A DNA stretch of 32,000 nt from Haliscomenobacter hydrossis DSM 1100. GTDB lineage: Bacteria; Bacteroidota; Bacteroidia; Chitinophagales; Saprospiraceae. The notes beneath the pieces are model-generated. The model made no database searches. It had not been told where the DNA came from and saw only the letters and a list, made by a program, of their open reading frames with translations. Shown in pieces: positions 1 through 30,686 of this stretch (position 1 is its first letter; every line of letters starts with the position of its first letter). The position numbers and the translations under genes are program-made. The stretch covers positions 2,536,315 through 2,568,314 of the forward strand of contig NC_015510.1 in NCBI RefSeq assembly GCF_000212735.1, given 5' to 3'.

Positions 1-2
1 AT

Positions 3-338
3 TTGCGCGCCGTGGCCGAGTTTGTCAAAGGCAAACAAAAAGCCGACAACATCACCGCCTGGATCGTACCGGGTTCCAAACAAGTAGAAAAACAAGCGCA
101 AGAAGAAGGCCTGGTGGCCATTTTTGAAGCGGCTGGTTTCCAATTGCGTCAACCTGGCTGTTCGGCATGTTTGGGCATGAACGAGGATAAAATCCCCAAA
201 GGCAAATACGCGGTGTCTACGTCCAACCGCAACTTTGAAGGCCGTCAAGGCCCCGGCGCACGCACCATGCTGGCCAGCCCCATTACGGCTGCTGCGGTGG
301 CAGTAACGGGGAAAATTGTTGATCCACGAGACCTGTAG
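3..338 (+). CDS. leuC: 3-isopropylmalate dehydratase large subunit, C-terminal fragment (gene continues upstream of the window)
   Basis: The ORF is open to the 5' edge. The 111 aa tail carries the aconitase-family signatures [14 protein letters not shown] and [12 protein letters not shown]. leuD follows directly. Confidence 0.93.
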
Positions 339-466
339 GGGCAACCCTACGTGGTTGCCCCTACGTGGTTGCCCCTGCGTGGTTGCCCATACGTGGTTGC
401 CCTTGATCACAGGGGCGGCCACATAGAGGGGCGGCCACAGAGGGGGGCGGCCACAGAGGGCCGCCC
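336..466. repeat. Cluster of GC-rich hairpin repeats with unequal arm copy numbers
   Basis: Read directly. GGGGCAACC is followed by four tandem 14-nt copies of its partner (CTACGTGGTTGCCC, 347-402). Then come three tandem copies of about 16 nt (AGGGGCGGCCACAGAG, 411-457), followed by a single partner GGCCGCCC. The cluster starts on the leuC TAG stop codon. Confidence 0.85.
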
Positions 467-504
467 TTACGGTAACATTTTTTTCTATCATCATATCATT
501 GATT

Positions 505-1098
505 ATGGCACGCGAAAAATTCCATTTGGTACACTCCTCAGCGGTACCCGTTCATATAGAAAACGTCGACACCGACCAGATCATCCCTGCCCGCTTCTTA
601 AAAGCAACCACTCGGGATGGCTTCGGTGAAAACCTCTTCCGCGATTGGCGGTACGATTCCAACAACCAGCCGATTGCTGATTTTGTGCTCAACAACCCAC
701 GGTACAGTGGTGATATTTTGGTGAGTGGCAAAAACTTCGGCTGCGGTTCCAGTCGTGAACACGCCGCCTGGGCCATCACCGATTATGGTTTCAAAGTGGT
801 GGTGAGCAGTTTTTTTGCAGATATTTTCAAAAACAACGCCTTGAACAACGGTCTTTTACCCGTACAGGTGTCGGATGAGTTTTTGGCACACATTTTTTCT
901 GCCATCGAACTGGATCACCAAACCACCTTCACCGTAAACCTGGAGACACAAACCTTCACGATCGATGCAACAGGCGCATCTTTTAACTTCGAAATCAATT
1001 CTTACAAAAAAGAGTGCATGCTCAACGGATACGATGACATCGATTATCTGTTGAACATGAAAGATAAAATCGCGAAGTTCGAACAAAGCAGAGCATAA
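505..1098 (+). CDS. leuD: 3-isopropylmalate dehydratase small subunit
   Basis: LeuD/aconitase swivel-domain motifs are present: [13 protein letters not shown] and [17 protein letters not shown] prefer the ATG at 505 over the TTG at 499 used by the ORF track. The gene follows leuC. Confidence 0.93.
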
Positions 1099-1101
1099 CT
1101 T

Positions 1102-1248
1102 AAGCGAAAAGCGAATAGCGAAAAGCGAAAAGCGAAAGCGAACATGAATAGGATAGGCTTATTAAAGTTTCAAATCTTTTAATAAGTCTTCTGCTTTTCA
1201 GACCCGCCTCCGGTTTTGTTTTTCGCTTTTCGCTTTTCGTTATTCGCT
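1102..1248. repeat. Periodic-arm hairpin element, AGCGAAA (7-nt) unit type
   Basis: The left arm (AGCGAAA/AGCGAAT)x6 at 1102-1142 is the reverse complement of the right arm TTTCGCTTTTCGCTTTTCGTTATTCGCT at 1221-1248, with 1 mismatch over 28 nt. The loop contains a second small hairpin, CTTATTAAAG...CTTTTAATAAG. The element fills the leuD to leuA-like gap. Confidence 0.88.
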
Positions 1249-1255
1249 AAAAAAA

Positions 1256-2779
1256 ATGGGAAGGAAGATCGAGATCATGGACACCACCCTCCGGGATGGT
1301 GAACAAACCTCCGGCGTATCGTTTACCGATCAGGAGAAATTGAAGATAGCTCGTTTGTTGCTGGAAGAGCTCAAGGTCGACCGCATTGAAATTGCTTCTG
1401 CGCACGTCTCGGAAGGAGAATTCACGGCGGTGAAAAAGATCATGGACTGGGCCAAAGAAAAAGGCTTCATCGATCGGATCGAGATCCTGGGTTTTGTGGA
1501 TGGCGATCGTTCCCTCAACTGGATGCGCGATACCGGTGCCAAGGTGCTCAACCTGCTCACCAAAGGCTCGGAGCGCCACTGCATCCAACAGTTGCGCAAA
1601 ACCAAAGAAGAACACCTCGCCGACATTCTCGATGTGCTGACACGGGCCGAAAAACTGGGCATTCGTTCCAATGTATACCTCGAAGATTGGTCCAACGGCA
1701 TGCGTACTTCGCCCGAATACGTTTATTTTATCCTCGCAGGTTTGAGCAAAGCCGCGGTTCACCGCGTGCTTTTGCCCGATACCCTGGGCATCCTCAATCC
1801 CGACGAGACCTTCACCTATTGCGCCGATGTGCAGCAACGTTTTCCCAACCTGAGTTTTGATTTTCACGCTCACAACGACTACGACCTGGCCACCGCCAAC
1901 GTCATGGCTGCCGTAAAGGCTGGGGTGTCGGGTATTCACGTTACCCTCAATGGCCTGGGCGAACGCGCGGGCAACGTTTCCCTGTCCAGCGTGGTGGGGG
2001 TATTGAAAGACCACCTGCACTGCGAGGTTTCGGTGGACGAGAAAAAACTGTACTCCGTGAGCAAACTCGTGGAGTCCTACTCCGGCGTGCGGATTCCGAC
2101 CAACAAGCCGATCATTGGCGAGTTTGTCTTTACCCAAACCAGCGGCATCCACGCCGATGGCGACCAAAAGGGCAACCTCTACCACAACGACCTGAGCCCC
2201 GAGCGCTTCAACCGCAAGCACTCTTACGCCCTGGGTAAAATGGCGGGCAAATCCAGCATCCGCAAAAACCTGGAAGAACTGGGCATCGAACTCGACCAAG
2301 AATCGATGCGCCTGGTGACCAAAGCCGTCAACGAACTGGGCGACCGCAAAGAGGTCGTCACGCAAGAAGACCTGCCCTACATCATCGCCGATGTACTGGA
2401 CAAACAAACCCTCGCCCAGCGGGTGCGCATCAAAAACTATGCACTGTCAGTAGCCGCAGGTCTGCGTTCGGTAGCGACCCTCAGCATCGAGATTGATGGC
2501 AAAACCTACGAGCGTACCGCCGATGGCGATGGCCAATACGATGCCTTCATGAGCGCCCTGCGCCAGATTTATCAATCTTTGGGCAAAAACCTGCCCCGCC
2601 TGACGGATTACGTAGTCACCATTCCTCCGGGCGGAAAAACGGACGCCTTGTGCCAAACCGCCATCACCTGGCAACAGGATGAAGGCCGGCCCTTTAAAAC
2701 CAGCGGCCTTGACTCTGATCAGGCCATCGCGGCGATTAAGGCGACAATCAAAATGTTGAATCTTATCGAAAATCAATAA
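1256..2779 (+). CDS. LeuA/CimA-family synthase (2-isopropylmalate synthase or (R)-citramalate synthase type)
   Basis: 507 aa. It has the HMGL-like N-terminal signature [16 protein letters not shown], the metal-site motif [13 protein letters not shown], and a C-terminal LeuA-dimer-like regulatory region of about 100 aa. From memory, the N-terminus resembles the short CimA-type enzymes. It sits between leuD and leuB. Confidence 0.88.
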
Positions 2780-2780
2780 A

Positions 2781-2900
2781 GAAGGTTCGGGGGTTCGAAG
2801 GTTCGGGAGTTCGGGGGTTCAAAACGGTCACCGAGCGAAGTCGAGGTGCAGTTTTGAACCCTCGAACCCTCGAACCTTCGAACCCCCGAACCCTAAAACC
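2781..2900. repeat. Periodic-arm hairpin element, GGTTCGRR (8-nt) unit type
   Basis: The left arm at 2781-2824 is five GGTTCGRR octamers plus AAAAC. The right arm at 2851-2900 is its reverse complement, differing only by A/G transitions. The loop at 2826-2850 is GGTCACCGAGCGAAGTCGAGGTGCA. The element starts 1 nt after the stop of the upstream gene and ends 7 nt before the leuB ATG. Confidence 0.92.
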
Positions 2901-2907
2901 TTTACAA

Positions 2908-3978
2908 ATGAAATTCACTATCGCAAAACTTCCCGGCGACGGTATTGGCCCGGAAGTAGTGGCGCAAGCAGTAAAAGTACTGGAAGCCATTGGCAAAAAG
3001 TACGGTCATGAATTTGATTTTACCTTTGGCATCACTGGCGCTCACGCCATCGATGAAGTAGGTGAGCCTTACCCGGAATCGACCCACCAGATTTGTATGG
3101 ATGCCGATGCGGTACTCTTTGGGGCCATCGGTGATCCCAAGTACGACAACGATCCGAAGGCGAAAGTACGCCCTGAGCAAGGCCTCCTGGCCATGCGCAA
3201 AAAACTGGGTTTGTACGCCAACATTCGCCCCATCAATACTTTTCCTTCCCTGATCCATAAATCTCCCTTGCGCCCTGATCTGGTGGAAGGTGCCGACTTT
3301 GTGGTGATCCGTGAATTGACTGGCGGGATTTATTTTGGCGAACCCCGTGGCCGCAGCGAAAATGGCGAAAAAGCTTACGATACCTGCGTGTACACCAAAG
3401 AGGAAGTGACGCGCATCACCAAACTTGGCTTCGAATACGCCCGCCTACGCAACAAACGCATGACCGTAGTGGACAAAGCCAACGTACTGGCTACTTCCCG
3501 CTTGTGGCGCGAGACGGTGCAAGGTATGGTGGCCGATTATCCCGATGTGGAAGTGGATTACATGTTCGTCGACAACGCGGCCATGCAAATCATCCAGTGG
3601 CCTAAGAAATTTGACGTGATGCTGACCGAAAACATGTTCGGCGACATCCTTTCCGACGAGGCGAGTGTGATCACCGGGTCTTTGGGCTTGTTGCCTTCGG
3701 CTTCGGTGGGGATTCACACCTCGGTGTTTGAACCGATCCACGGCTCGTATCCCCAAGCGGCGGGTAAAGACATTGCCAACCCGATTGGCACGGTGCTTTC
3801 GGCTGCATTGCTCCTGGAGTTGGGCCTCAAACTGCCCGCCGAAGCAAAAGCGGTACGTGATGCGGTAGATGCCTCCCTGGCTGCCGATGCGGTGACGGAA
3901 GACATTGCTACGGATAAAGCCAAAGCCTTCAAAACCTCAGCGGTGGGGGATTGGTTGGCGGAGTATATTTTGAAGTAA
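2908..3978 (+). CDS. leuB: 3-isopropylmalate dehydrogenase
   Basis: The product starts [17 protein letters not shown] and carries [12 protein letters not shown], the isocitrate/isopropylmalate dehydrogenase signature. The ORF-track start at 2854 only translates the hairpin arm ([12 protein letters not shown]), so I prefer the ATG at 2908. Confidence 0.93.
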
Positions 3979-3996
3979 AATAACCATCTCGAACTC

Positions 3997-4025
3997 CTCT
4001 CCGAAAGTTTCAGACTTTCGGAGAG
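3997..4025 (+). terminator. Perfect 12-bp stem hairpin downstream of leuB (possible terminator or 3' stabiliser)
   Basis: CTCTCCGAAAGT-TTCAG-ACTTTCGGAGAG lies 19 nt after the leuB stop. No U-tract follows, so a terminator function is uncertain. The CCGAAAGT/ACTTTCGG core recurs at 4607-4636. Confidence 0.45.
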
Positions 4026-4076
4026 ATTAAGTCCGTACAACTCTTGCTCGGAGCCTTCGGCTCTGTCGCATTAGTT

Positions 4077-4169
4077 ACAATGGGAACGCGGATGACGCGG
4101 ATTAAGCGGATTTTCGCTGATCAAATCCGTCTAAATCCGCTTAATCCGCGTCATCCGCGTTCCCATTGT
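4077..4169. repeat. Perfect 36-bp-stem hairpin (GCGGAT-rich family)
   Basis: ACAATGGGAACGCGGATGACGCGGATTAAGCGGATT at 4077-4112 has its exact reverse complement ending at 4169, around a loop of about 20 nt. Confidence 0.9.
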
Positions 4170-4210
4170 TGTCGCTTTTATGCATTGGGAGTTCACGGAG
4201 TGGGAGGTAA

Positions 4211-4542
4211 TACGTCAAGCGTAAAGGAAAATCCTGGTTGTGTTGAACCACTTACTCGCCACTTCGTGGGGCGCTCGTCGATCCCAAATTGCTCGCTGTC
4301 GCGAGCGGGCTCGACGATCGCAACAGCCTTAGATCCTACTCCTGGTCGAACCAGCGTAAAAAGCTTGACCTGCCGTAGGCCCTAGAACCATGAAAAATAA
4401 TTCTTTATTTTTTGAGCTAAGGCAAACCTCAACGGCCACGCAGGATCCCAAACCCGCGATCGTCGAGCCCGCTCGCGACAGCGAGCATTTTGGGATCGAC
4501 GAGCGCTCACGGAGTGACGCGTAAAATCTTCATTTGAAACGC
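4211..4542. repeat. Structured ~330 bp element, copy 1 (internal 51-bp inverted repeat)
   Basis: This segment aligns with 4692-5022 at roughly 90 percent identity by eye. Arms at 4271-4321 and 4456-4506 are reverse complements, with 1 mismatch. Imperfect pairing extends the stem outward to about 4252-4525. The central loop is A+T-rich. Confidence 0.85.
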
Positions 4543-4606
4543 GCAATCTGCGACGTATTTGCTCCGCACCATCTCCCGCTGCTCCGAAAAATCTACCGCG
4601 CTTGAA

Positions 4607-4636
4607 CATCCCGAAAGTCTTGAAACTTTCGGGATG
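4607..4636. repeat. Perfect 12-bp stem hairpin, CCGAAAGT/ACTTTCGG core
   Basis: CATCCCGAAAGT-CTTGAA-ACTTTCGGGATG. It shares its 8-nt core with the hairpin at 3997-4025. Confidence 0.75.
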
Positions 4637-4691
4637 GGACTCTTGGTTTTGCGACAACTGATTGTTGTTCGCTTTTCCAAAAAGATAGGGT

Positions 4692-5022
4692 TACGTCAAA
4701 TGTAAAGGAGAATCCCGGTTGTGTTGAACCAATTACTCGCCACTACGTGGGGCGCTCGTCGATCCCAAAATGCTCGCTGGCGCGAGCGGGCTCGACGATC
4801 GCGGGGCCTTAGACCCTACTCCTGGTCGAACCAGCGTAAAAACTTGACCTGCCCTAGGCCCTAGAGCCATGAAAAATAATTCTTTACTTTTTTTTACCTA
4901 AAGCAAACCCCAACAGCCACGCAGGATCTCAAAACCCGCGATCGTCGAGCCCGCTCGCGACAGCGAGCATTTTGGGATAGAGCGCTCACGGAGTGACGTG
5001 TAAAATCTTCAGTTGAAACGCC
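4692..5022. repeat. Structured ~330 bp element, copy 2
   Basis: This is a direct repeat of 4211-4542, offset by 481 nt. It has the same internal inverted repeat (GCGCTCGTCGATCCCAAAATGCTCGCTGGCGCGAGCGGGCTCGACGATCGC and its partner), with a few substitutions and small indels. Confidence 0.85.
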
Positions 5023-5150
5023 CCACCACATCCGCCCACGCCATAGCCCTGCTACAGGCCATTACTCGCTCCCGCTCGCTGATGGCCTGAGCGGGCTATT
5101 TGCGAACATTTTTTTAGCTCACAGGAAAGCCGGAAGGGTCACCGCAGTAA

Positions 5151-8100
5151 CTAGAGGGCCAAACGAAACCCCAAGTGGTCGTCGCGGTACGTGGGCGCGT
5201 AGCCGCTGCGAGCGGACACGCGGCAGTTCCCCGCGCTGAGGCTCCAGCTACCGCCACGAGTCACACGGTAAGAGCCCGAGTTTGCCCCTCCAGGATTCGT
5301 CTGTTTATTGCTGGAATAATCTCCATACCTATCCTCACACCATTCCCACACATTGCCACTCATATCATAGATCCCCAATTGATTGGCCTTTTTCCGCCCC
5401 ACCGGATTGGTGCCTTTTGAATTATCGCCGTACCAGGCCACCTCATCAATCCGATCACTCCCGGCGTATTTAAACTTAACTTTCTGACCATTCTCCCCAC
5501 CCCGTGCCGCATACTCCCATTCCGCCTCGGTAGGTAAGCGGTACTGCTGTCCGGTTTTATTGCTCAACCAGCGGCAATAGGCCACCGCACCATCCCAATT
5601 CACCATGATCACCGGATATTTTTCATACCCTTTGGCGGGCTGCCAGCGGGTTTGACCATTTACGGTCGTTTTTTGCAGGCCCCATTCATTTTCCTCGATG
5701 TACCGATCCAGGTTATCTACCCGGTTGGGGTTTACGGTTACATCATTCAAAAATGCGGCATACTCCGCATTGGTTACTTCGTGTTTTCCAATCGAATAGG
5801 TACCCAAAGTCACCTCATGCGCAGGTTTTTCACTCTCGAAACAATCCTTATCTCGTTTATCCTCACAGCCCATCACAAAAGTCCCGCCATTTACCCGAAT
5901 CATTTCCGGCGCAATGGGTTTATAGGTCGTTTGCTCAATGTTCGGGCGTTGTTCATTCTGAGGTGGAGGGCTGGTCTGTTCAGGTACCCGCTGCAGGCGG
6001 ATGTCCTCAAAGCGTTCATTGCTCAAGCCACGCAATTGCGACTGGGTAAAGCTGCGCTCAAAGGGCAGATACCCCTCCATGTTTACCTTGACGGTCAAAC
6101 CCGTGATGCGCCGCAAATCGCGCCGCAAGGTGAAGGCACCGCGGGCAGTGCTCTGTCCACGGGTACTGCGGATTTCACTACCTGTATTCCACTCATAGAT
6201 CATCGTGGCCCCAGAGACAAGTTCTCCCGTGCGGTCATCCAATACTCGCCCGTTCAGAATGGCCACGGTATCCTCCGGTACTGGAGGAACGGCTACAGGG
6301 GGCAAGCCCCAGCGCTGGGGGTGGGCAATGGCCAGACGGGCCACCACCTTAATCGCATTGGGATTGGGGTTGATCTGGATCAACTCCGCCACCAAGCTAT
6401 CGGTACGGCGGAGATCACCGGGGCGATTGAGGTTGCTGCGCAAGGTAAACAAAGCAGTCCCATCCCGTGCCTTGGCCGGAAGTTCTTGAGCAAGAACAAA
6501 GCTTGGGGCGCGGGTACGGGCATTGCGCTGGGCAGGGTTGTTGGGCTGCGCGCGTTCCACGGCCAGTACCCGCAAGCGCAAACTCTTGTCGCGATTGGGG
6601 TTGGTGTAATAATTCACCTGTACTTCCAAACTCAGGTTTTGGGCTTTGCCCGGAAAAATATCAATGAGCCGCGAAGGTTCTTTTTGCAAAAGCGTCGCCA
6701 GATTGGGGCGGATACGGGTCGTATCAAAAAAGCCCAGGGTATCCAGCTCATAGTGAATGCCCTCGGCCAGGGAGGGGTCATTGGTGGTATTGGTCAGGAA
6801 ATAGATGACTCCTTCGGCGTGTTTGCTGGCGAGGGCCAGAGCTTGGAAGGCTTCCTGTTCAACCGCACGGATATTGCTTCCAGTGAAATATTGGTCCGCC
6901 AGATCGCGGTTGGCTCGGAACTGCTCGATGCTTCTATCGGTAGGTTCTGGCAAGTTAGTTCCCCGGCGCCAGGCATTGTAAAACATGACACCCCGGTTGT
7001 AGTTCAGCCGTGCCAGATTCAGCGCAGCCGTGCGTTGTGGGAGTACCAACCGATTTTTTTCCTCATATCGCTGCGCCTGCTCCAGCTTTTGGCTTACTGT
7101 TGGCCAATGCTCAACGGTTATGGGTACATTGCTACCCCCCTGGATGTTTTTGAGCATTTCCGGAAATGCCTGTTCCTTGTACACCTGCACCGCCTGGTTG
7201 TTTAAAATAACCGCACTATCTACCGCGATGATTTCTTTTATGAAAATGTTGCTGCGCAATTTGGTTTTGGGGTCAAACTGTTGCTGGCCGGGGTCTTTGC
7301 CAAAAGCCAAGCGATAAAGTTTGTCGTTATCCGTCAAGAGCAGACTGAATACCAAGACCAGGAAGGCCACAAAAAAAGCCAGCAGCCGCCAAAACGCTGC
7401 ATTGATGAGCGGTGGTTTGGGTGGCTTTGCCACTTCCGGTGTTTCTTGCTGGGGAATTTCTTCATTTCCCTCCAAAAAGCGCCGCAAGGTCGGTTCATCC
7501 GGGTTGAGCGGAAAATCGGGCTGCTGGAAAAAAGTATTGCTTTGGCTGATGTTTTGCTCATAACTTTGTTCATAAGCTTCCTCCGCTTGTGGCGCTTGTT
7601 TGGTAAATCCACCCTTTGTCGCCGGGCCCGAGCGTCGTTTGGGCGTCAATTCACGCACGGCTACACCGCCCAGATCTTCAATGTGCAAGCGATTGAACCA
7701 GCCTTGGTCCAGCAACAATTTTACCTGTGCTTTAGATTCAGGACTAGAGGGAGTCAAGGCAAAGCGTTGCACGGCCAGATTCGTTTGTAGCGCCCGATTG
7801 GCAAAACCCGGAGCAGCCTCGGCCAGCGAGGCTTCCAGTTCGTTGGCGATGGCGGTACGGGCGAGTTCTTCGTCGTACAATTGCAAATCAGCCAACAATT
7901 CTTTGCGCAAACGTGGGTTGATTTTACCCTCCTGCAAACTGGGAATCCGCGCCAGCACCAGCAGGCTATCGGCATTCAGCGGGATGTCCAGTGCTGCGCC
8001 GACGGCCAGGGTAATTTCCCAGGTTGGTGAGGGATACAAGGCCAGCGCACAAAACCAGCGGTACAAATCCGAGCCGTAGCCCAGGTATTCGGCGTGGTCG

Positions 8101-10019
8101 GAGGCACTGCGCCAGCGGCGATTGACGTCGGGTTCGGTACGGGCGGTAGCCAGGCGTTCGCGCCAGGTGCTAAAGGCCGAGGGCAGGTCATCGGGTTCCA
8201 TGCCGTTGTCGATGAAGTTGGCGGCGGCCATTTGTCCTTCCAGATCGGCGGGAAAAACGGGGAGTACCGCGTGCAAACTGGCCTCGCGGTAGTCCCAACT
8301 CTGCGGTGGGCGGGGACTGAGCAAGAGGCGGCGTTTCCAGCGCTGCAAGTCGGCTACGGGTTCGCTGCGCAGTACTTTGTTGCCCTGCGCAAAGGGGTCG
8401 AGTATGCCGTGGGCGTCCCCGAAGACGATCACCCGGTGTTCGGGGCAAAGTCGACTGACTTGCTCCAGCGTAATGCCTTGCGGATATTGGGGATTCCAAA
8501 AATGGAAAAATTCACTGCGGTAATAAAACACTTCAGCGTGTACGTCCTGATCGTGCAGCACCTTGACCAAATGGCGCAACAGTCGGCCCTGGTGGCTGGT
8601 TTCGTTTTGTTCATCCACCAAAAACAGGTAGTCGGCTGGCTTGGTGCTGCTGCGGAATTGCAAACGCGGGAATCCTCCGCTGGCAATGGTTACATCCACC
8701 GTTTTGGGTACGTCCACCTCTTGGCGCTGGCCTTCCTGGCGACGACGCAGGGCATCGGCGAGGCGAAATTGTCCGGCAAAATTGCGGATCAAGCCGTTCA
8801 GCGGGCGGAAGGGGATTTCGTAGGGCGGGCGGTCCGGCGAGGAAGTTAAGGGTTCGGGGGTTCGGGGGTTCGGGGGTTCGGGAGTTGGAGGGCGTTGCGT
8901 TTTTGCCCAAAGAAATAAAGAATAAAAAATGGCGGCAGCCAACAAGCCGACAAGCACCCAAAGGCCCCAGTTGTAGTTGGCAGTTAATCGGACGGGGGCG
9001 TATTGCAAATCGTACCAGGGCAAATACACCTGATCTTCCCCTACCCGCATGGTGGCGGAGGTGCTTGTGCTACAAAAACCACTTAAGCCTGGGCGGGTGA
9101 CCTTGAGTTCAACGCTGTAGCTCCCTTCTTCCAAATAGCGGTGCGTGGGGCTGCGCAGGGTGCTGGAGTCTCCATCGCCAAAATCCCAGTGGTATTGTAA
9201 GTCGGGCGTTGCTTCGATGACATTGGGGGTAAACGTATATGTTTCGCCGGGCGGTAAATTGGCGGGAAAATCCAATCCATCCAATTCTGGTGGATTAACA
9301 CAGTCTATCCTCAGGATGCTATCGAAATGGAAGGTGCTGTCGCGGCGTTTTTCGTATATGTCAACCGCAATGATTTTTTCGGAGCTGCCTTGTAAAGTGG
9401 TGAAAGGTACCTGCCAGCTTCGGAGGCCATCTGATTCCGCTTCGATGTTCCCGCTTACTTTATCTTTTAGACTCCAGTGGATATTGACATCAAGGGTATC
9501 AATGTTTTTGGTGTTGAGTGTAAAAACTGCGGTATCTCCCACCCGAATGGGCGTGATGTACGAAATCCCGATGGAAGTGGTTTGGGTTTCAGGTTTAAGC
9601 AGGGGATAAATGAAGTAGCCCAGGAGCGCCAATCCAAGCAGTGCCGGAAAGGTACTCCACCATTTGCGCAGCCAGGTACGCAGGTTTTTTAGCCAGATGC
9701 CTTTGGCTTCAGCTTTGTCTGCTTCGGTCGCGTTGGCGAGGATTTCGGCGTAATATTGGTCAAAAATGATGTAAAAGCGCTCTTGCTCGGCCTTGCTGTG
9801 CGCAATGACGGGCGCCAGCAGGTAGCGCAACTTCTGGGGTTCGTCCCAATGTACGCTGGCCGGGCCGCTGATGACTTGCAACAGGCGTACTTTCTCGGCG
9901 GGGCTGAGGTTGAATCCCCCGAGTTCAAGGCGGGTGAGCAGGCCGGCTAAGGGTAGGTCGATATGTGGGATTTCAGTGTCGATGGTCTTGATTGCTTTGT
10001 AGATTCCAAATTTACTCAA
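5151..10019 (-). CDS. Giant multi-domain membrane protein: PKD, degenerate CoxE-type vWA-like module, CarboxypepD_reg-like domain and C-terminal FGE-sulfatase (SUMF1) domain
   Basis: A continuous 1648-codon ORF runs from 10097 down to 5151. Three hydrophobic helices are visible: FPALLGLALLGYFIYPLL, WGLWVLVGLLAAAIFYSLFLW and FWRLLAFFVAFLVLVFSLLL. There is a PKD signature (YHWDFGDGDSSTLRSPTHRY) and a RRRQ..VDVPKTVDVTIASGGFPRLQFR..DYLFLVDEQNETS block. A GRVLDDRTGELVSGATM block suggests a carboxypeptidase-regulatory-like fold. The C-terminus has FGE-sulfatase motifs: GGTFVMG, LPTEAEWEYAARGG, NVWEWCEDRY, RGGSW and HLGFRLAL. There is no ATG or GTG in the first ~100 codons. The first 26 codons translate the arm of hairpin E, so I suggest the TTG at 10019. 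The start remains uncertain (10019 to 10097). Confidence 0.85.
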   Translation of the reverse strand: MSKFGIYKAIKTIDTEIPHIDLPLAGLLTRLELGGFNLSPAEKVRLLQVISGPASVHWDEPQKLRYLLAPVIAHSKAEQERFYIIFDQYYAEILANATEADKAEAKGIWLKNLRTWLRKWWSTFPALLGLALLGYFIYPLLKPETQTTSIGISYITPIRVGDTAVFTLNTKNIDTLDVNIHWSLKDKVSGNIEAESDGLRSWQVPFTTLQGSSEKIIAVDIYEKRRDSTFHFDSILRIDCVNPPELDGLDFPANLPPGETYTFTPNVIEATPDLQYHWDFGDGDSSTLRSPTHRYLEEGSYSVELKVTRPGLSGFCSTSTSATMRVGEDQVYLPWYDLQYAPVRLTANYNWGLWVLVGLLAAAIFYSLFLWAKTQRPPTPEPPNPRTPEPLTSSPDRPPYEIPFRPLNGLIRNFAGQFRLADALRRRQEGQRQEVDVPKTVDVTIASGGFPRLQFRSSTKPADYLFLVDEQNETSHQGRLLRHLVKVLHDQDVHAEVFYYRSEFFHFWNPQYPQGITLEQVSRLCPEHRVIVFGDAHGILDPFAQGNKVLRSEPVADLQRWKRRLLLSPRPPQSWDYREASLHAVLPVFPADLEGQMAAANFIDNGMEPDDLPSAFSTWRERLATARTEPDVNRRWRSASDHAEYLGYGSDLYRWFCALALYPSPTWEITLAVGAALDIPLNADSLLVLARIPSLQEGKINPRLRKELLADLQLYDEELARTAIANELEASLAEAAPGFANRALQTNLAVQRFALTPSSPESKAQVKLLLDQGWFNRLHIEDLGGVAVRELTPKRRSGPATKGGFTKQAPQAEEAYEQSYEQNISQSNTFFQQPDFPLNPDEPTLRRFLEGNEEIPQQETPEVAKPPKPPLINAAFWRLLAFFVAFLVLVFSLLLTDNDKLYRLAFGKDPGQQQFDPKTKLRSNIFIKEIIAVDSAVILNNQAVQVYKEQAFPEMLKNIQGGSNVPITVEHWPTVSQKLEQAQRYEEKNRLVLPQRTAALNLARLNYNRGVMFYNAWRRGTNLPEPTDRSIEQFRANRDLADQYFTGSNIRAVEQEAFQALALASKHAEGVIYFLTNTTNDPSLAEGIHYELDTLGFFDTTRIRPNLATLLQKEPSRLIDIFPGKAQNLSLEVQVNYYTNPNRDKSLRLRVLAVERAQPNNPAQRNARTRAPSFVLAQELPAKARDGTALFTLRSNLNRPGDLRRTDSLVAELIQINPNPNAIKVVARLAIAHPQRWGLPPVAVPPVPEDTVAILNGRVLDDRTGELVSGATMIYEWNTGSEIRSTRGQSTARGAFTLRRDLRRITGLTVKVNMEGYLPFERSFTQSQLRGLSNERFEDIRLQRVPEQTSPPPQNEQRPNIEQTTYKPIAPEMIRVNGGTFVMGCEDKRDKDCFESEKPAHEVTLGTYSIGKHEVTNAEYAAFLNDVTVNPNRVDNLDRYIEENEWGLQKTTVNGQTRWQPAKGYEKYPVIMVNWDGAVAYCRWLSNKTGQQYRLPTEAEWEYAARGGENGQKVKFKYAGSDRIDEVAWYGDNSKGTNPVGRKKANQLGIYDMSGNVWEWCEDRYGDYSSNKQTNPGGANSGSYRVTRGGSWSLSAGNCRVSARSGYAPTYRDDHLGFRLAL
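8846..8888. repeat. Half-arm of the GGTTCGRR element inside a CDS (four perfect GGTTCGGG octamers)
   Basis: TTAAG-(GGTTCGGG)x4-AGTTGG, with the octamers at 8851-8882. No complementary arm lies nearby. On the minus strand it is read in frame as PTPEPPNPRTPEPLT, immediately after the second TM helix of the giant protein. Confidence 0.9.
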
Positions 10020-10043
10020 TAATCTACAATGCAGTCTTAAAAA

Positions 10044-10231
10044 GTTGAGGAAGTTGAGAAGGTTGAGGAGGTTGAGGCTACCGCGAGCGACATTCAAAAG
10101 CGGCTCAATTTTTTGAACAGTCTCAAAAAGCGTTTGTCGCTTTCGTTTGTCGCTTTCGTTTGTCGCTTTCGTTTGTCGCTCGCGGTAGCCTCAACCTTCT
10201 CAACCTCCTCAACTTCCTAAACCTTCTCAAC
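10044..10231. repeat. Periodic-arm hairpin element, GTTGAGGA unit type, with a 13-nt tandem repeat in its loop
   Basis: The left arm at 10044-10092 is GTTGAGRA-type octamers plus GGCTACCGCGAGCGACA. The right arm at 10174-10231 is TGTCGCTCGCGGTAGCC plus TCAACYTY-type octamers. The loop carries about 3.8 copies of CGTTTGTCGCTTT (10131-10180). The element lies between the divergent giant gene and hmgA. Confidence 0.9.
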
Positions 10232-10276
10232 TTCTCCAAAAACCCTTAACTTGCCTCACCAAATAAAACCAACATT

Positions 10277-11434: not shown

Positions 11435-11491
11435 TTTGTAGCAAAAGATTAGTACTGAATACCCACCTGCGGTGGCTATATTTTTCTATTT

Positions 11492-11572
11492 TCTCCCGCA
11501 GATCACACAGATTTACGCAGATTTTTTCCAAAAAGGACAGTATCTGCGTAAATCTGCGCGATCCGCGGGAGA
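11492..11572. repeat. 31-bp-stem hairpin (CGCAGAT family)
   Basis: TCTCCCGCAGATCACACAGATTTACGCAGAT pairs with ATCTGCGTAAATCTGCGCGATCCGCGGGAGA at 28 of 31 positions. All three mismatches are A.C on the plus strand, which would be U.G wobbles on the minus strand. The ORF-track extension of fahA (QITQIYADFF..RKSARSAGE) is just a translation of this hairpin. Confidence 0.88.
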
Positions 11573-11618
11573 ATTATGTAAAGATGCATCTGCCGTAGGC
11601 GGGTGCTATTTCAAATTG

Positions 11619-12851: not shown

Positions 12852-12956
12852 CCATATGCTAATTTCGCGCAGATGTTACACAGATTTTCTGCGTGACATC
12901 TGTGTGAACCAAAATTATACTCAGTAGTTTCATCAAAAACTTCTACGCTACCAACC

Positions 12957-13832: not shown

Positions 13833-13865
13833 GTCTTCTTAATTTCGCCCAAATTTTTGGACACG

Positions 13866-14720
13866 ATGAACAACAAGATATGTGTGGTGACCGGAGCAAA
13901 TTCCGGTTTGGGTTTTGAAACCGCCAAAGCCCTGGCTGCCCAGGGTGCGCGAGTGGTTTTGCTCAGCCGCAGCGCCGATAAGGGTCAGGAAGCACTCGAC
14001 AAGATATTTACCGCTACGCAAAACGATCAACTCGAATTGATGACGGTGGACCTGAGCTCGCAGGCTTCAATTCGGGAAACCGGGCAAAAAATTCTGACCA
14101 AATACCCCGTCATCGATACCCTGGTGAACAATGCCGGAACCTGGATTTCGAAACATTCACTGACTGAAGATGGCGTCGAAACCATGTTTGCGGTCAATCA
14201 CCTGGCCTACGTGCTGATGACGCACGTGCTGTATCCCGCCCTGCGCCAGGCGCCCGATGGCCGGATTGTATGTGTGGCCTCGGATTCACATTTCCAGTTC
14301 AAGATCAACTACGAGGACCTCAATCTGACGGATAAATACCACGGATTGCGGGCTTATGCTCAATCCAAGGGGGCCAATGTAATGTTCGTTTCAGAGTTGC
14401 ACAAGCGCAAACTGGAAGAGAACGTCTCCGCTTACGCCATCCAGCCCGGTTTGGTCAAAACCGATATTGGCGTAAAACGCACCAACTGGCTGCATGCCCT
14501 GGCCTGGAAAATCCGCCGCAGTGGTGGGGTAAGTCCGGCAGAAGGGGCACAATGCCAGATCTTTTGCGCCAGCGCAGCTGAGGCTCAGGGGCAAAGTGGA
14601 TTGTATTGGGACAAATGTAAGCCCAAACCTTCGGCGAAATACACGTATGTTGAAGAGGAGCGGGCCAGACTGTGGGAGATGTGTATGGAGATGTGTGGGA
14701 TTGAGAAATTTTTTGGTTGA
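13866..14720 (+). CDS. Short-chain dehydrogenase/reductase (SDR)
   Basis: Contains the cofactor motif VVTGANSGLGFETA (TGxxxGxG), NNAG, and the catalytic YAQSK (YxxxK). I prefer the ATG at 13866 over the TTG at 13857. Confidence 0.88.
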   Translation: MNNKICVVTGANSGLGFETAKALAAQGARVVLLSRSADKGQEALDKIFTATQNDQLELMTVDLSSQASIRETGQKILTKYPVIDTLVNNAGTWISKHSLTEDGVETMFAVNHLAYVLMTHVLYPALRQAPDGRIVCVASDSHFQFKINYEDLNLTDKYHGLRAYAQSKGANVMFVSELHKRKLEENVSAYAIQPGLVKTDIGVKRTNWLHALAWKIRRSGGVSPAEGAQCQIFCASAAEAQGQSGLYWDKCKPKPSAKYTYVEEERARLWEMCMEMCGIEKFFG

Positions 14721-14800
14721 TAAAGTTGATATGAGTTGATGCTACCGCAGTGACATGTCGCTGCGGCAGCATCAACTTCATCAACCTATCAACTTTATCA
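14718..14800. repeat. Periodic-arm hairpin element, GTTGATNN unit type
   Basis: TGATAAAGTTGATATGAGTTGATGCTACCGCAG - TGACATGTCG - CTGCGGCAGCATCAACTTCATCAACCTATCAACTTTATCA. Its first three nt are the SDR TGA stop codon. The inner stem GCTACCGCAG/CTGCGGCAGC resembles the inner stem of the element at 10044-10231. A perfect 16-nt palindrome, CACGATTTAAATCGTG, follows at 14804-14819. Confidence 0.88.
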
Positions 14801-14873
14801 ACCCACGATTTAAATCGTGAGCTAAACAAAAAAGGCCTCCTAATCGATTGACTAGAAGACCTTTGTGTTTTTG

Positions 14874-14947
14874 CGCCTCAGGTAGGGCTCGAACCTACGA
14901 CCTACGGATTAACAGTCCGCCGCTCTAACCGGCTGAGCTACTGAGGC
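14874..14947 (-). tRNA. tRNA-Asn(GTT): tRNA-Asn (anticodon GTT)
   Basis: I folded the minus-strand sequence by hand as a cloverleaf: GCCTCAG TA GCTC AGCCGGTTA GAGC G GCGGA CTGTTAA TCCGT AGGTC GTAGG TTCGAGC CCTAC CTGAGGC G. It is 74 nt with all four stems paired. The anticodon loop is CU-GUU-AA. The 3' CCA is not encoded. Confidence 0.93.
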
Positions 14948-15045
14948 ACTTGCCGGTGCAATTATCGAATTGCGTGTGCAAATGTATGCCAACTCGAAAT
15001 AATGTGCAATATTTGCGGCGTAAATTTTCAAAAAATATTTTCATC

Positions 15046-15972: not shown

Positions 15973-15973
15973 A

Positions 15974-16089
15974 TAGGGTTCGGGGGGTCGAGGGTTCGGG
16001 AGTTCGAAGGTTGGGTTCAAGGGTTATGCAAAACTCTACCCAACCCTCGAACTCCCGAACCTTCGAACCCTCGAACCCCCGAACCCTAA
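15974..16089. repeat. Periodic-arm hairpin element, GGTTCGRR type
   Basis: TAGGGTTCGGGGGGTCGAGGGTTCGGGAGTTCGAAGGTTGGGT ... ACCCAACCCTCGAACTCCCGAACCTTCGAACCCTCGAACCCCCGAACCCTAA. It starts 1 nt after the pfkB-family stop and ends 5 nt before the AAA gene ATG. The right arm has one more unit than the left. Confidence 0.9.
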
Positions 16090-16094
16090 GAGAA

Positions 16095-17171
16095 ATGGAC
16101 ATCCTCCGCCCACATGCCGAAAACGTCTTTGCCGCTGAACTGGTGGCACTGGCGGCCAGTGACCAACATGTACGGCCACGCAACTGGAAGCTGTCGCCCT
16201 GGGCGGTGGTGACCTACCTGATGGGCGGAAAGTTGGATACGGGTGAAGAAATCAGCCCCAAATATTTCGGTCAGCGCCGTTTGATTGAAGTGGCGGTGGC
16301 TACACTGGCTACCGATCGTGCTTTGTTGCTGATGGGGGTTCCGGGAACAGCCAAAACCTGGGTCTCGGAGCATTTGGCAGCAGCCATTAGTGGAAATTCA
16401 ACTTTATTGGTGCAAGGTACGGCGGGCATGAGCGAAGACGCTTTGCGTTACGGCTGGAATTACGCCCGCCTTTTGGCCGAAGGACCTTCCGAGAGAGCCT
16501 TGGTGGCCAGTCCGGTGATGCACGGCATGCAACACGGGCAGTTGGTGCGCATTGAAGAACTGACCCGCATCCCCTCGGATGTGCAGGATGCCCTGATTAC
16601 GATTCTTTCCGAAAAAACCTTACCCATTCCCGAACTCAATACCGAGGTGCAAGCTACCCGGGGTTTCAACATCATTGCCACAGCCAACGACCGCGATCGC
16701 GGGGTAAATGAACTCTCCAGCGCTTTGCAGCGCCGCTTCAACACCGTGGTTTTGCCCCTGCCCAGCAGCCTGGAGGAGGAAGTAGAAATTGTACAAACTC
16801 GGGTAAACCAATTGGGCAAAGCCCTTGAATTGGCCGAGGCCAAAGTACCCAGTGAAGAAATTCGCCGATTGGTGACCATCTTCCGTGAGCTGCGCTCGGG
16901 ACGCACCGAAGACGGTAAACTCAAACTCAAATCCCCTACGGCTACCCTCAGCACTGCCGAAGTCATCTCCGTCATCAACAGTGGGCAGTCGCTTTGTCTG
17001 CATTTTGGCGATGGCCAACTGCGGGCCCGCGATTTGGCGTCCAGCTTAACCGGTGCCATCATCAAAGATACTTCGCTGGATGCCGAAGTTTGGCAGGAAT
17101 ACCTGGAAACGGTAATCAAGGGCCGGGAAGGCTGGGGGGATTTGTATCGGGCGTGTAAGGAAGGAGTTTAG
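16095..17171 (+). CDS. MoxR/AAA_5-like AAA+ ATPase (no adjacent partner gene)
   Basis: Walker A is GVPGTAKT and the Walker B region is QLVRIEELTR. NIIATAN looks like sensor 1 and SALQRRF like the arginine-finger region. The ATG at 16095 gives MDILRPHAENVF. The ORF-track extension from 16011 translates the hairpin arm. Confidence 0.82.
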   Translation: MDILRPHAENVFAAELVALAASDQHVRPRNWKLSPWAVVTYLMGGKLDTGEEISPKYFGQRRLIEVAVATLATDRALLLMGVPGTAKTWVSEHLAAAISGNSTLLVQGTAGMSEDALRYGWNYARLLAEGPSERALVASPVMHGMQHGQLVRIEELTRIPSDVQDALITILSEKTLPIPELNTEVQATRGFNIIATANDRDRGVNELSSALQRRFNTVVLPLPSSLEEEVEIVQTRVNQLGKALELAEAKVPSEEIRRLVTIFRELRSGRTEDGKLKLKSPTATLSTAEVISVINSGQSLCLHFGDGQLRARDLASSLTGAIIKDTSLDAEVWQEYLETVIKGREGWGDLYRACKEGV

Positions 17172-17300
17172 GGTTCGAAAGTTCGGGGGTTCGGGGGTTC
17201 CAACGGGCAACTCGACTCCTCTTCGACTTCGCTCAGCGACCAGCTCGGCAACCCTTGGAACCCTCGAACTTTCGAACCCCCGAACTTTCGAACCCTAAAA
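17169..17300. repeat. Periodic-arm hairpin element, GGTTCGRR type
   Basis: TAGGGTTCGAAAGTTCGGGGGTTCGGGGGTTCC ... GGAACCCTCGAACTTTCGAACCCCCGAACTTTCGAACCCTAAAA. Its first three nt are the TAG stop of the AAA gene, and it ends 8 nt before the MATE ATG. The loop contains CTTCGACTTCGCTCAGCGACC, the reverse complement of the loop core at 2826-2846. Confidence 0.9.
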
Positions 17301-17308
17301 CATAAAAC

Positions 17309-18634: not shown

Positions 18635-18666
18635 TATCATTTTGAGGGTGGAGACCTTGCATGCTG

Positions 18667-19035: not shown

Positions 19036-19047
19036 AGTCTAAGCTGA

Positions 19048-19278: not shown

Positions 19279-19302
19279 ATCAAATAGGCATATGTAATGC
19301 TA

Positions 19303-19310
19303 CAAAGTTA
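19303..19310 (-). promoter_or_regulatory. Candidate Bacteroidota-type -7 box (TAACTTTG) for the antitoxin/PIN operon
   Basis: The minus strand reads TAACTTTG, matching TAnnTTTG, 24 nt upstream of the antitoxin ATG in the 61-nt gap after rsgA. Confidence 0.3.
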
Positions 19311-19339
19311 TGCATTTTATTTTCTCCACACCAGTCCAT

Positions 19340-20292: not shown

Positions 20293-20416
20293 GACGTTGA
20301 AATGTTGAAGCGTTGAATGGTTGAAAAGAAGTTTAAAGGCTGTTGAGTTAAAAAGACCAGTTTACTTATACACTTTGAAACTTCTTTTCAACTCTTCAAC
20401 ATTTCAACTCTTCAAC
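20293..20416. repeat. Periodic-arm hairpin element, GTTGAANN unit type
   Basis: GACGTTGAAATGTTGAAGCGTTGAATGGTTGAAAAGAAGTTTAAAG ... CTTTGAAACTTCTTTTCAACTCTTCAACATTTCAACTCTTCAAC. It fills the gap between the GGGPS stop (20424) and the rsgA start (20287) on the minus strand. Confidence 0.88.
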
Positions 20417-20423
20417 TCTTTCT

Positions 20424-29245: not shown

Positions 29246-29325
29246 TTAGGGTTCGAGGGTTCGAAAGTTCGGGGGTTCGAAGTTCGGTAACCCTCGAACC
29301 CCCGAACTTTCGAACCCTCGAACCC
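29246..29325. repeat. Periodic-arm hairpin element, GGTTCGRR type
   Basis: TTAGGGTTCGAGGGTTCGAAAGTTCGGGGGTTCGA - loop - TCGAACCCCCGAACTTTCGAACCCTCGAACCC, about 32 bp of perfect stem. It lies 14 nt upstream of the minus-strand start at 29231. Confidence 0.92.
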
Positions 29326-29574: not shown

Positions 29575-30618
29575 ATGACTATGTCTGCCAACGCATTTCA
29601 ACAATTACAGGACTTGTTGCAGGAAATTGAGGCGGCCAATCCGGCCAACGCCGAGGCCATTGAGCAGTTTCGTTTGCGGTTCCTGGGGTCAAACAACGTG
29701 ATCAAACCCTTGATGGGCGAAATTCGGAACGTACCGAATGAGCAAAAAAAAGAGTTTGGCCAGTTGATCAACAAAGCCAAAGAGCAAGCTGAGGCCAAAT
29801 TTGATGCCCTCAAGGCGGTAGCAGAAGCTGCTGCGGAAAAATCACAGGCGGCAGGTTTGGACATTACCGCACCTGGCGAACCCATCGACCTGGGCTCACG
29901 CCATCCGGTAGCGGTGACGCTCAACCGCATCGTGCGCATTTTTGAACGCCTGGGTTTTGTGGTGGCCGAAGAGCGAGAGATTGAAGACGATTGGCACAAC
30001 TTCAGCGCCATGAACACGCCCGCAGACCACCCGGCGCGCGACATGCAAGATACGTACTACCTGCGCAACAGCACCGAAATGCTGCTGCGTACCCATACTT
30101 CCTCCGTACAAGCGCGGGTGATGACCTCGCAAAAACCGCCCATCCGCATCATTGCGCCGGGCCGGGTGTACCGCAACGAAACCATTTCGGCGCGTTCGCA
30201 TTGTCAGTTCCACCAAGTGGAAGGCTTGTACATTGACAAAGGGGTCTCTTTTGCCGACATGAAACAAACCCTGTACTATTTCGCTCGCGAAATGTACGGA
30301 CCCAATACCAAAATACGCCTCCGCCCCTCGTTTTTCCCCTTTACCGAACCCAGTGCAGAAATGGACGTTTCCTGTTTCATCTGCAACAGCAAAGGTTGCC
30401 GGGTCTGCAAATACAGCGGTTGGGTGGAAATTCTGGGCTGCGGCATGGTTGACCCTCAAGTGTTGATCAACTGTGGCATCGATCCTGAAGAGTATTCTGG
30501 CTTTGCCTTTGGCATGGGCATCGAACGCCAGGCGATGATGTTGTACACGATTACGGATATCCGCTTGTTGTTTGAAAACGATGTGCGGTTTTTGAAGCAA
30601 TTCTCGTCAGTCATTTAG
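29575..30618 (+). CDS. pheS: Phenylalanine--tRNA ligase alpha subunit
   Basis: Class II synthetase motifs of PheS are present: HPARDMQDTYY, LLRTHTSSVQAR, GRVYRNE, FHQVEGL and FGMGIERQAMM. The product is 347 aa. Confidence 0.94.
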   Translation: MTMSANAFQQLQDLLQEIEAANPANAEAIEQFRLRFLGSNNVIKPLMGEIRNVPNEQKKEFGQLINKAKEQAEAKFDALKAVAEAAAEKSQAAGLDITAPGEPIDLGSRHPVAVTLNRIVRIFERLGFVVAEEREIEDDWHNFSAMNTPADHPARDMQDTYYLRNSTEMLLRTHTSSVQARVMTSQKPPIRIIAPGRVYRNETISARSHCQFHQVEGLYIDKGVSFADMKQTLYYFAREMYGPNTKIRLRPSFFPFTEPSAEMDVSCFICNSKGCRVCKYSGWVEILGCGMVDPQVLINCGIDPEEYSGFAFGMGIERQAMMLYTITDIRLLFENDVRFLKQFSSVI

Positions 30619-30680
30619 GGTTCGAGGGTTCGGGGGTTCGTAGGTTCGAACCCCCGAACCCCCGAACCCTCGAACCCTAA
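30616..30680. repeat. Periodic-arm hairpin element, GGTTCGRR type
   Basis: TAGGGTTCGAGGGTTCGGGGGTTCGTAGGTTCG | CGAACCCCCGAACCCCCGAACCCTCGAACCCTAA, with almost no loop. Its first three nt are the pheS TAG stop, and it ends 6 nt before the hisS ATG. Confidence 0.92.
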
Positions 30681-30686
30681 AAAATA

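Follow-up and report, generated by a model that had tools for sequence, protein, structure and literature searches.

Intergenic hairpins with tandem-repeat arms in Haliscomenobacter hydrossis and their probable origin as palindromic DNA elements

Hairpins of the window and their genomic setting

The stretch of Haliscomenobacter hydrossis DSM 1100 DNA analysed here, hereafter the window (NC_015510.1, positions 2,536,315 to 2,568,314; 32,000 nt), contains a family of long hairpins whose arms are tandem arrays of a short unit. They occupy intergenic gaps, including those of the leuC-leuD-leuA-leuB and PfkB-MoxR-MATE gene groups and of the pheS-hisS and rsgA-pcrB pairs. The LeuA protein encoded in the window has 100% identity to AEE49900.1 of H. 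hydrossis DSM 1100. The hairpin of the leuA-leuB gap (2781-2900) was described in the original prediction as two inverted arrays of GGTTCGRR octamers that differ by transitions only, and this description is accurate. With a 25-nt loop between them, its 42-nt arms (2784-2825 and 2851-2892) show 93% complementarity and three mismatches, all of them transitions, and an 8-nt period is detected in both arms by Tandem Repeats Finder (TRF). The RNA fold of this region has a free energy of -86.5 kcal/mol on either strand, with a z-score of about -11 and none of 200 shuffled sequences as stable; the z-scores are also strong at the other hairpins tested.

A search of the window with a purpose-written inverted-repeat finder returned 12 inverted repeats of at least 25 bp, against 0.0 in 30 dinucleotide shuffles (Table 1). 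In 11 of these 12 long intergenic palindromes the arms consist of 3-6 tandem units of 7-9 nt, the period being 7 for AGCGAAA, 8 for GTTGAANN and GGTTCGRR, and 9 for GTTGAGGAA and GTTGATAWA. The stems are 27-60 bp long and the fold z-scores range from -8 to -15. Eight further loci with the same layout had been listed together with 2781-2900, and all nine are real according to TRF, the inverted-repeat finder and the folds; the list missed three hairpins (345-460, 4077-4169 and 11491-11573) and a lone array without a partner arm (8850-8886). Co-directional genes flank eight of the 12 hairpins; two more are in convergent gaps, including one that precedes a tRNA-Asn gene, and the remaining two in divergent gaps. 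Near-exact filling of the gap is common, the hairpin starting 0-5 nt past the stop codon and ending 3-10 nt ahead of the next start. The leuD-leuA hairpin, whose 70-nt loop holds an inner hairpin of its own, runs from 2 nt past the leuD stop to 5 nt ahead of the leuA ATG.

Table 1. Tandem-repeat hairpins and related arrays of the window
Feature	Coordinates	Strand	Description
leuC-leuD gap arrays	345..460		four tandem 14-nt copies of CCCTACGTGGTTGC and three 16-nt copies of GGGGCGGCCACAGAGG; TRF, fold
leuD-leuA gap hairpin	1100..1251		arms of 5-6 AGCGAAA units, 7-nt period; fold z-score -8.2
leuA-leuB gap hairpin (originally reported)	2781..2903		GGTTCGRR arms 2784-2825 and 2851-2892; loop core GGTCACCGAGCGAAGTCGAGGTGCA at 2826-2850
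Hairpin downstream of leuB	4077..4169		37-bp perfect stem; three GCGGATKNN units per arm, 9-nt period; z-score -14.7
Lone array of GGGTTCGG, 4.6 copies	8850..8886	-	inside a 1648-aa FGE-sulfatase-domain gene; without partner arm; encodes PEPPNPRTPEPL in a linker
Divergent-gap hairpin	10041..10236		outer arms of GTTGAGGAA-type 9-mers; inner stem GCTACCGCGAGCGACA
Hairpin between HgmA-like and fumarylacetoacetase genes	11491..11573		CGCAGATNN units, 9-10-nt period
Hairpin between the end of a + strand gene and tRNA-Asn (- strand)	14716..14806		GTTGATNNN units; inner stem GCTACCGCAGTGACA
GGTTCGRR hairpin, PfkB-family/MoxR gap	15974..16089		TA on both borders
GGTTCGRR hairpin	17167..17299		starts inside the MoxR stop codon (GTT TAG GG...); loop carries the 2826-2850 core reversed
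Hairpin between rsgA and pcrB (both - strand)	20294..20420		GTTGAANN units, 8-nt period; inner segment AAGAAGTTTAAAGG
GGTTCGRR hairpin, divergent gap (Wzy_C-family gene -, pheS +)	29246..29325		32-bp perfect stem; z-score -11.4
GGTTCGRR near-perfect palindrome	30614..30681		centred on GGTTCGAACC; fills the pheS-hisS gap; z-score -10.2

The best explanation of the hairpins is that they are small non-coding palindromic repeats maintained at the DNA level, rather than RNA genes or terminators. Comparison of the window with Rfam at the gathering threshold yielded tRNA-Asn alone, so that no hairpin belongs to a family at that threshold; in E-value mode the hairpins match generic long-hairpin microRNA precursor models, far below it. 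Intrinsic terminators were rejected, as a terminator scan of positions 1-20000 called none of the eight hairpins present there, the stems are 27-60 bp long, no U-tract is present, A-rich sequence flanks the hairpins on the 3' side and T-rich sequence on the 5' side, and two hairpins stand in divergent gaps. The arrays are also not of the CRISPR kind, since their units are contiguous and without spacers.

Functional RNA structures selected for their shape, acting in RNase III processing, mRNA stabilisation, an unconventional Bacteroidota type of termination or the holding together of stop and start codons, with the sequence left free to drift, would be in keeping with the extreme stability of the stems (z-scores from -8 to -15). 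The same applies to their position: the elements start 0-5 nt past stop codons, and several reach to within a few nt of the next start codon. This explanation is nevertheless considered unlikely, because both strands fold equally well, U-tracts are lacking, the T-rich 5' and A-rich 3' flanks are the reverse of those of a terminator, and two of the 12 hairpins separate divergent genes. In all the DNA compared, the 59 classifiable hairpins are distributed between tandem, convergent and divergent gaps as 37/12/10, versus about 35/10/14 predicted by gap length. Sense-strand mismatches in co-directional gaps comprise 34 G·U and 40 A·C pairs, and the missing G·U excess gives no sign of protected pairing in one transcript, although this test is weak because gene calls were crude and many mismatches are register effects.

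Empty sites and dispersed families

The orthologous loci of four congeners (L002, L229, L230 and L231) and three further MoxR loci (L225, L226 and L228) were compared with the window. Both presence or absence of hairpins, at leuA-leuB and PfkB-MoxR, and unit turnover, at leuD-leuA, are seen in the orthologous gaps. With a hairpin that has the same 25-nt loop core in both, the leuA-leuB gap measures 128 nt in the window and, in L230, 113 nt; in L229, L231 and L002 it is hairpin-free and 3 nt long (TAA-NCA-ATG). The PfkB-MoxR gap measures 122 nt in the window versus 20 nt in L225, L226 and L228, and taking out 113 nt gives back the sequence of the relatives. Without the element and one TA, the junction at 15974-16089 reads GGAAATCTAAATA joined to AGAGAAATGG, compared with TTAAATCTAATAAGAATGG in the relatives; in a longer alignment, GGAAATCTAAATA followed by AGAGAAATGGAC lines up with their TTAAATCTAATAAGAATGGAC. 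At the end of MoxR, GTT TAA of L226 corresponds to GTT TAG GGTTCG... of the window, the stop codon being restored by the first G of the element, and the palindrome at 30614-30681 likewise begins inside the stop codon of pheS. In total, three junctions are represented by empty sites with uninterrupted flanks in close relatives. In close relatives such junctions span only 3-20 nt and carry no hairpin, which argues against an RNA structure selected for its shape.

The Haliscomenobacter GGTTCGRR copies typically have the termini TA-GG-GTTCG...CGAAC-CC-TA, some ends being degenerate, and the whole element is an inverted repeat with the termini TAGGGTTCG...CGAACCCTA, that is, with the terminal inverted repeats of MITEs (miniature inverted-repeat transposable elements). 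The termini TTAGGGTTCG...CGAACCCTAA that had been ascribed to these copies are complete in two of them and only partial in the other three. A 21-nt core is found in two of five GGTTCGRR copies of the window, in opposite orientations, and is missing from the other three. Six copies of the GGTTCGRR type are counted in the window and two in L230, and none was found in about 110 kb of the loci of the other congeners, a pattern of a recent lineage-specific burst in which this type would have multiplied. Multiplication of one family in a single lineage is a further point against selected RNA structures. Judged from the sequence comparisons, the GGTTCGRR type fits MITE-like insertion at TA. In metagenome contigs, pairs of GTTCG arrays with 650-800 nt between them enclose open reading frames (ORFs) of ordinary appearance, none of them a recognisable transposase, and BLAST of two elements against a plasmid collection gave no match.

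Units and inner cores recur together at unrelated positions. Two hairpins have the loop core GGTCACCGAGCGAAGTCGAGG, in one orientation at 2826 and in the other at 17221. Arms of the GTTGA type are found together with the inner stem GCTACCGCAGCG at 14741, with a variant of it at 10074, and again with it in the activated-sludge contig L136; the inner stem of the 10041-10236 hairpin is likewise shared with 14741 and L136. AAGAAGTTTAARGG is found with GTTGAA arms both at 20326 and at a non-orthologous site, the leuC-leuD gap of L230, to which the family of the 20294-20420 hairpin also extends. Members of the CGCAGATNN family are located in L136 (2575-2656) and L171 (2280-2349), and L136 has the same suite of families as the window. 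With the same unit and core at non-orthologous sites, these are dispersed families.

A purely local origin, in which seed slippage is followed by inverted duplication in place and nothing moves between loci, would explain why loci, and also orthologous sites, differ in their unit but retain the period. It is also in line with the palindrome at 30614-30681, centred on the self-complementary TTCGAA of its unit, a natural fold-back point, and with the leuC-leuD arrays at 345-460, which are amplified forms of two small hairpins, each single-copy in L229 and with compensatory stem changes. However, no GGTTCG seed is present in the empty sites of the relatives, the unit and the 21-nt loop core recur together at unrelated loci, the common TA-GGGTTCG termini point to one source, and the same families reside in the contig of another organism (L136). 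As a general account local origin is very unlikely, and for the GGTTCGRR, GTTGA-core and GTTGAA-core families these comparisons have largely refuted it. The original prediction held that the spread of a single repetitive extragenic palindromic (REP) or MITE consensus would not suffice and left the choice between a diversifying element family and a local generating mechanism. The insufficiency is confirmed by the dispersed families together with remodelling in place, and both alternatives seem to contribute, the former through TA-flanked insertions and the latter through the unit turnover at leuD-leuA.

Other observations concern the instability of these gaps. A composite block of about 230 nt in L225 (11080-11312), which contains two GC hairpins, one of them small, and a CACAAATTN tandem-arm hairpin, is absent at 11080-11088 of L226 and L228, strains with about 95% identity, which indicates strain-level turnover of such gaps. 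The Logan contig L001, derived from the same strain as the window, has both of its ends within hairpins (window positions 415 and 4106), suggesting for this contig that short-read assembly breaks at these elements; a second contig of the strain (L232) begins 17 nt before the window start and ends at position 3654 inside leuB, not in a hairpin.

Probable remodelling of the arms in place

The leuD-leuA gap contains a hairpin with a 7-nt period in all five genomes, which fills the gap each time. Its unit is AGCGAAW in the window and L230, GTGATGA/GTGATAG in L229, ATCAGCW in L231 and AATGAAA in L002. Identity at the four-fold degenerate sites of leuA is 87% between the window and L230, about 52% between the window and the other three genomes, and 69% between L229 and L002; the corresponding unit differences are 0, 2-3 of 7, and 2 of 7. 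Measured against these sites, the unit consensus seems to turn over at about the neutral rate. Within each genome the leuD-leuA arms are 80-97% complementary, and unit-to-unit identity in an arm, where measured, is 72-100%, while roughly 55% complementarity would be expected of arms that were not maintained. Near-neutral divergence of the unit combined with arms that remain 80-97% complementary points to concerted evolution.

Changes in unit number are mirrored in both arms: the 4077-4169 hairpin has three units against four in L002, and that at 2781-2903 five against four in L230. The 4077-4169 ortholog of L002 has another loop, and that of L230 has identical stem arms and a different loop. 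At leuD-leuA, comparison of the window with L230 shows that the variant unit AGCGAAT has spread to its neighbours within a single arm. Among 63 hairpins, arm-to-arm complementarity averages 0.89 versus 0.79 for the identity of neighbouring units and is the greater of the two in 47; sliding an arm by one unit lowers complementarity to 0.70, a contrast inflated by the register choice of the finder. This concerted evolution is attributed to unit slippage combined with arm-to-arm copying, to which selection for pairing could add.

It is probable, at a moderate level of confidence, that the hairpins represent a DNA-level palindromic element whose insertion, at gene boundaries with a TA, is followed by remodelling through slippage and copying between the arms. 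In the first step, which the comparisons support for GGTTCGRR hairpins, a copy present elsewhere in the genome would enter a TA at an A/T-rich gene boundary, often a TAA stop codon. The first G of the element would restore the stop as TAG, making the insertion silent for both neighbouring genes. In the second step the arms gain and lose whole 7-9-nt units, a change evident from the comparisons and attributable to replication slippage, and arm-to-arm copying, presumably by fold-back or template-switch correction of quasi-palindromes, would keep them complementary, so that both arms can take up a change that began in a single unit. The consensus of the unit would in time drift near the neutral rate while the period, arm length and hairpin architecture persist. 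Finally, the element may be tolerated in tight operon junctions because a stem paired to its base would hold the upstream stop and the downstream start close to each other, the start being left A-rich and unpaired.

Several points weigh against this account. TA is self-complementary and its duplication is indistinguishable from a 2-bp extension of the inverted repeat, so target duplication is only a possibility; both flanks can be read in just one filled/empty pair (H8), and the leuA-leuB reconstruction leaves about 8 extra bases unexplained and does not rejoin cleanly. No transposase or other mobilising gene is located within the 32-kb window. An insertion hot spot with repeated replacement could also account for the four unit types at leuD-leuA, an alternative that the constant period disfavours only at roughly p<0.05. 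The occurrence of the leuD-leuA hairpin in five of five genomes, together with the compensatory changes in the leuC-leuD gap, would also fit selection for structure. The tests of genomic context and mismatches took crude ORF calls as genes, and the bias towards G-first arms described below is without explanation in a model of insertion and remodelling. Two of these facts also count in favour of the RNA-structure explanation, namely that the leuD-leuA hairpin is retained in all five genomes despite complete unit turnover and that the small leuC-leuD hairpins differ by compensatory changes between the window and L229.

The arms might instead be arrays of binding sites for a transposase, nucleoid protein or regulator, with a 5-6-nt core and a free 2-4-nt spacer. 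Units such as GTTCG+RRR, GTTGA+NNN(N), CGCAGAT+NN and GCGGAT+KNN do combine an invariant core with a spacer that varies in sequence or length. Yet no candidate protein was found, the many unrelated cores would require many proteins, the core itself turns over at leuD-leuA, and a period of 7-9 bp keeps successive sites off a single face of the helix; this reading is accordingly given very little credence.

An additional palindrome was noted in the Saprospiraceae metagenome-assembled genome L002, where 19 nt (AAGTGATTGAATATCACTT, at 11508-11530) are inserted at the 3' end of leuA. The insertion creates an earlier stop codon (...LNLK*), the former end of the frame still being visible downstream. 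With a unit resembling the TAGTGAT arms of Bacteroides, AAGTGATTGAATATCACTT could be a hairpin at the seed stage.

Polarity, distribution and relation to known repeats

According to the original prediction the purine-rich arm is always 5' and the opposite polarity never occurs, neither of which holds. In 25 loosely clustered unit families the 5' arm has more G than C (G-first) in 18 and is C-first in four, whereas the purine split is 13 to 8; GC skew is the real signal. G-first units account for 18 of the 22 skewed clusters (sign-test p about 0.004, the clusters being possibly non-independent), and C-first hairpins exist in the same genus, e.g. in L225 and L231. Of 83 hairpins, 73 have a period of 7 or 8, and periods of 6 or 9 are rare.

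In 80 leuA neighbourhoods of other Bacteroidota (1.57 Mb), searched for inverted repeats of at least 22 bp, tandem-periodic arms were detected in 17 of 54 inverted repeats, versus 1.8% of random and 7.7% of intergenic segments. The units comprise AATGTGCT (Parabacteroides, Paludibacter), TAGTGAT (Bacteroides), AAAGGAT, GTCTTGCAG and CTAAGNNN (Flavobacterium), and the density of hairpins is about 30 times below that of the window. Many more tandem-arm hairpins are present in metagenome contigs. The contig L177 (4662-5100) has one with 141-nt arms of about 17 AGGTTGGA units, and the homologous contigs L204 and L210 contain five or six each per 10-14 kb, C-first units (GCTTCCR, ACCAGCT) included. 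Viral contigs of IMG/VR that match the GTTCG pattern carry tandem-arm hairpins with other units (L092, 5903-5993 and 7450-7525; L097, 6317-6482; L104, 6000-6071), suggesting that the architecture may also occur in phage or prophage DNA.

The closest precedent is provided by the GGGAATC heptamers of Xanthomonas, which form 183-186 arrays per genome, in 70-75 cases as 'convergent' inverted pairs, and are about 90% intergenic (Rehm et al. 2015, PLoS One, PMC4692102). These arrays lie on average 28 nt from, or overlap, the upstream stop codon; their lengths vary between sister species with the repeat type kept, no association with mobile elements or transposases was found, and the authors read them as G-quadruplex motifs (PMC4692102). 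According to Mrazek et al. (2007), as cited in PMC4692102, heptamers are in excess among bacterial simple sequence repeats (SSRs), in which 'long SSRs' of 5-11 nt are over-represented. The window hairpins agree with the definition of inverted pairs of long-unit SSRs in PMC4692102, being intergenic and composed of at least two tandem units of 5-11 nt followed closely by their reverse complement. They resemble the GGGAATC repeats in having tandem units with conserved and free positions, a G-rich array followed by a C-rich one, the capacity to form a stem-loop, and proximity to stop codons. For Xanthomonas one unit type per genome is described, in contrast to the many unit types described here, with periods of 7, 8 and 9 nt, most of them not G-quadruplex-capable. 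The present elements also differ in their family-specific inner cores, TA-bounded insertion with empty sites, unit turnover at orthologous loci and occurrence in Bacteroidota (Saprospiraceae).

A G-quadruplex or another non-B-DNA regulatory repeat, as proposed for Xanthomonas, is suggested by the GGTTCGGG units, which place runs of 3-5 G every 8 nt, by the array at 8850-8886 with at least four such runs, and by the G-first 'convergent' layout and stop-codon proximity shared with the Xanthomonas repeats (PMC4692102). It was rejected as a general reading because most unit types lack G-runs (AGCGAAA, GTTGAANN, GTTGATNNN, CGCAGATNN and AATGAAA among them) and only some GGTTCGGG runs have at least four G3 tracts. 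Most GGTTCGRR arms have only about three runs of three or more G, as R is often A, and with C-first hairpins existing as well this explanation is extremely unlikely.

Correia/NEMIS elements of Neisseria and similar MITEs are short, non-coding and present in high copy number, with terminal inverted repeats that fold the whole element, insertion at TA with flanking TA, and intergenic or operon-internal positions. The consensus of Correia elements is single and fixed, their inverted repeats are non-repetitive and their interior is conserved. The probable TA target and the whole-element hairpin are shared, whereas the arms described here are built of tandem units variable in number and sequence, the interior may be absent (30614-30681), and the elements can be as small as 56-70 nt. 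The TAACTGA repeats of Beggiatoaceae, Cyanobacteria and Bacteroidetes form direct arrays, with a single inverted case reported (MacGregor 2015, PMC4679880). Like these and the short tandemly repeated repetitive (STRR) heptamers of cyanobacteria, the present arrays are intergenic tandem repeats of 7 nt near start and stop codons, patchy across phyla that include Bacteroidetes; unlike the TAACTGA sets, which have no paired arm and no hairpin, their arms are paired. REP sequences and bacterial interspersed mosaic elements (BIMEs), associated with the RAYT transposase, are also abundant short extragenic palindromes at gene ends. Assignment to them was rejected, since no GTAG or CGTC head occurs in the sequences inspected and there are many consensus types; the stems of 27-60 bp and tandem-repeat arms are further differences.

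Literature searches by unit strings gave no match, searches by topic turned up the TAACTGA direct heptamers and the Xanthomonas repeats and nothing on these elements, and they go unmentioned in the H. hydrossis genome paper. The earlier remark that they were not recognised as a described class therefore stands as regards Rfam and the literature, and is to be qualified in that the Xanthomonas inverted pairs are a partial precedent for the architecture (PMC4692102). What appears to be new is the number of unit types and periods per genome, the family-specific cores, the empty sites, the insertion into stop codons, the neutral-rate unit turnover with kept architecture, and the spread across Bacteroidota.

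If insertion followed by remodelling is the correct account, the hairpins are a clean natural case of concerted evolution on a structure of less than 150 nt, in which hairpin, period and position are inherited and the sequence is replaced at the neutral rate. Homology searches would then miss such elements and split one class into many apparent 'families', and tests of structure conservation would score them as functional RNAs even where complementarity is kept up at the DNA level. The elements show how a 3-nt operon junction or a stop codon can be entered without damage, and the proportion in other Bacteroidota (17 of 54) suggests a general process, undescribed beyond one Xanthomonas unit type. 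A more far-reaching proposal, made only tentatively and thought unlikely as a whole, is that tandem-repeat-arm hairpins constitute a distinct self-maintaining class of bacterial elements. Such miniature palindromic satellites would have DNA-level arm copying, their structure would outlive their sequence, and they would be widespread in Bacteroidota and perhaps beyond, with a role at operon junctions, e.g. in stop/start adjacency without Shine-Dalgarno-guided initiation.

The window contains further repeats. The loop of the 10041-10236 hairpin holds a perfect array of a 13-nt repeat (CGTTTGTCGCTTT, 3.8 copies with 100% matches, 10131-10180), a repeat nested in a repeat, and the divergent gap adjoining the 29246-29325 hairpin has another inverted repeat (29378-29535) with A/T-rich arms of 24 nt, 110 nt apart. 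Two 91%-identical copies of a palindromic element of about 260 nt, with 51-nt arms (GCGCTCGTCGATCCCAAATTGCTCGCTGTCGCGAGCGGGCTCGACGATCGC) and an interior of about 134 nt, occupy the convergent gap after leuB (4256-4520 and 4741-5000). In L230 the site holds no more than a version with a single arm (66 nt), bracketed by CACTTCGTG...CACGAAGTG, and the element is absent from L002.

The lone array at 8850-8886 belongs to a coding sequence on the minus strand (5151-10097), five orthologs of which have another sequence at this place, with the small hairpin GGGCAACC-GCGA-GGGTTGCCC. Four of the orthologs align without gaps and the fifth (L002) has a single gap of 1 aa; an in-frame exchange of one repeat type for another therefore seems to have taken place. 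A family of small palindromes, GGGGCAACC-N6-GGTTGCCCC, is represented at 345-460 of the window, 9225-9320 of L229 and 9172-9290 of L231. It is tandem in the leuC-leuD gap of the window and single-copy in L229, with both sides of the stem changed. It is also found within a coding linker of relatives and looks like a separate REP-like family.

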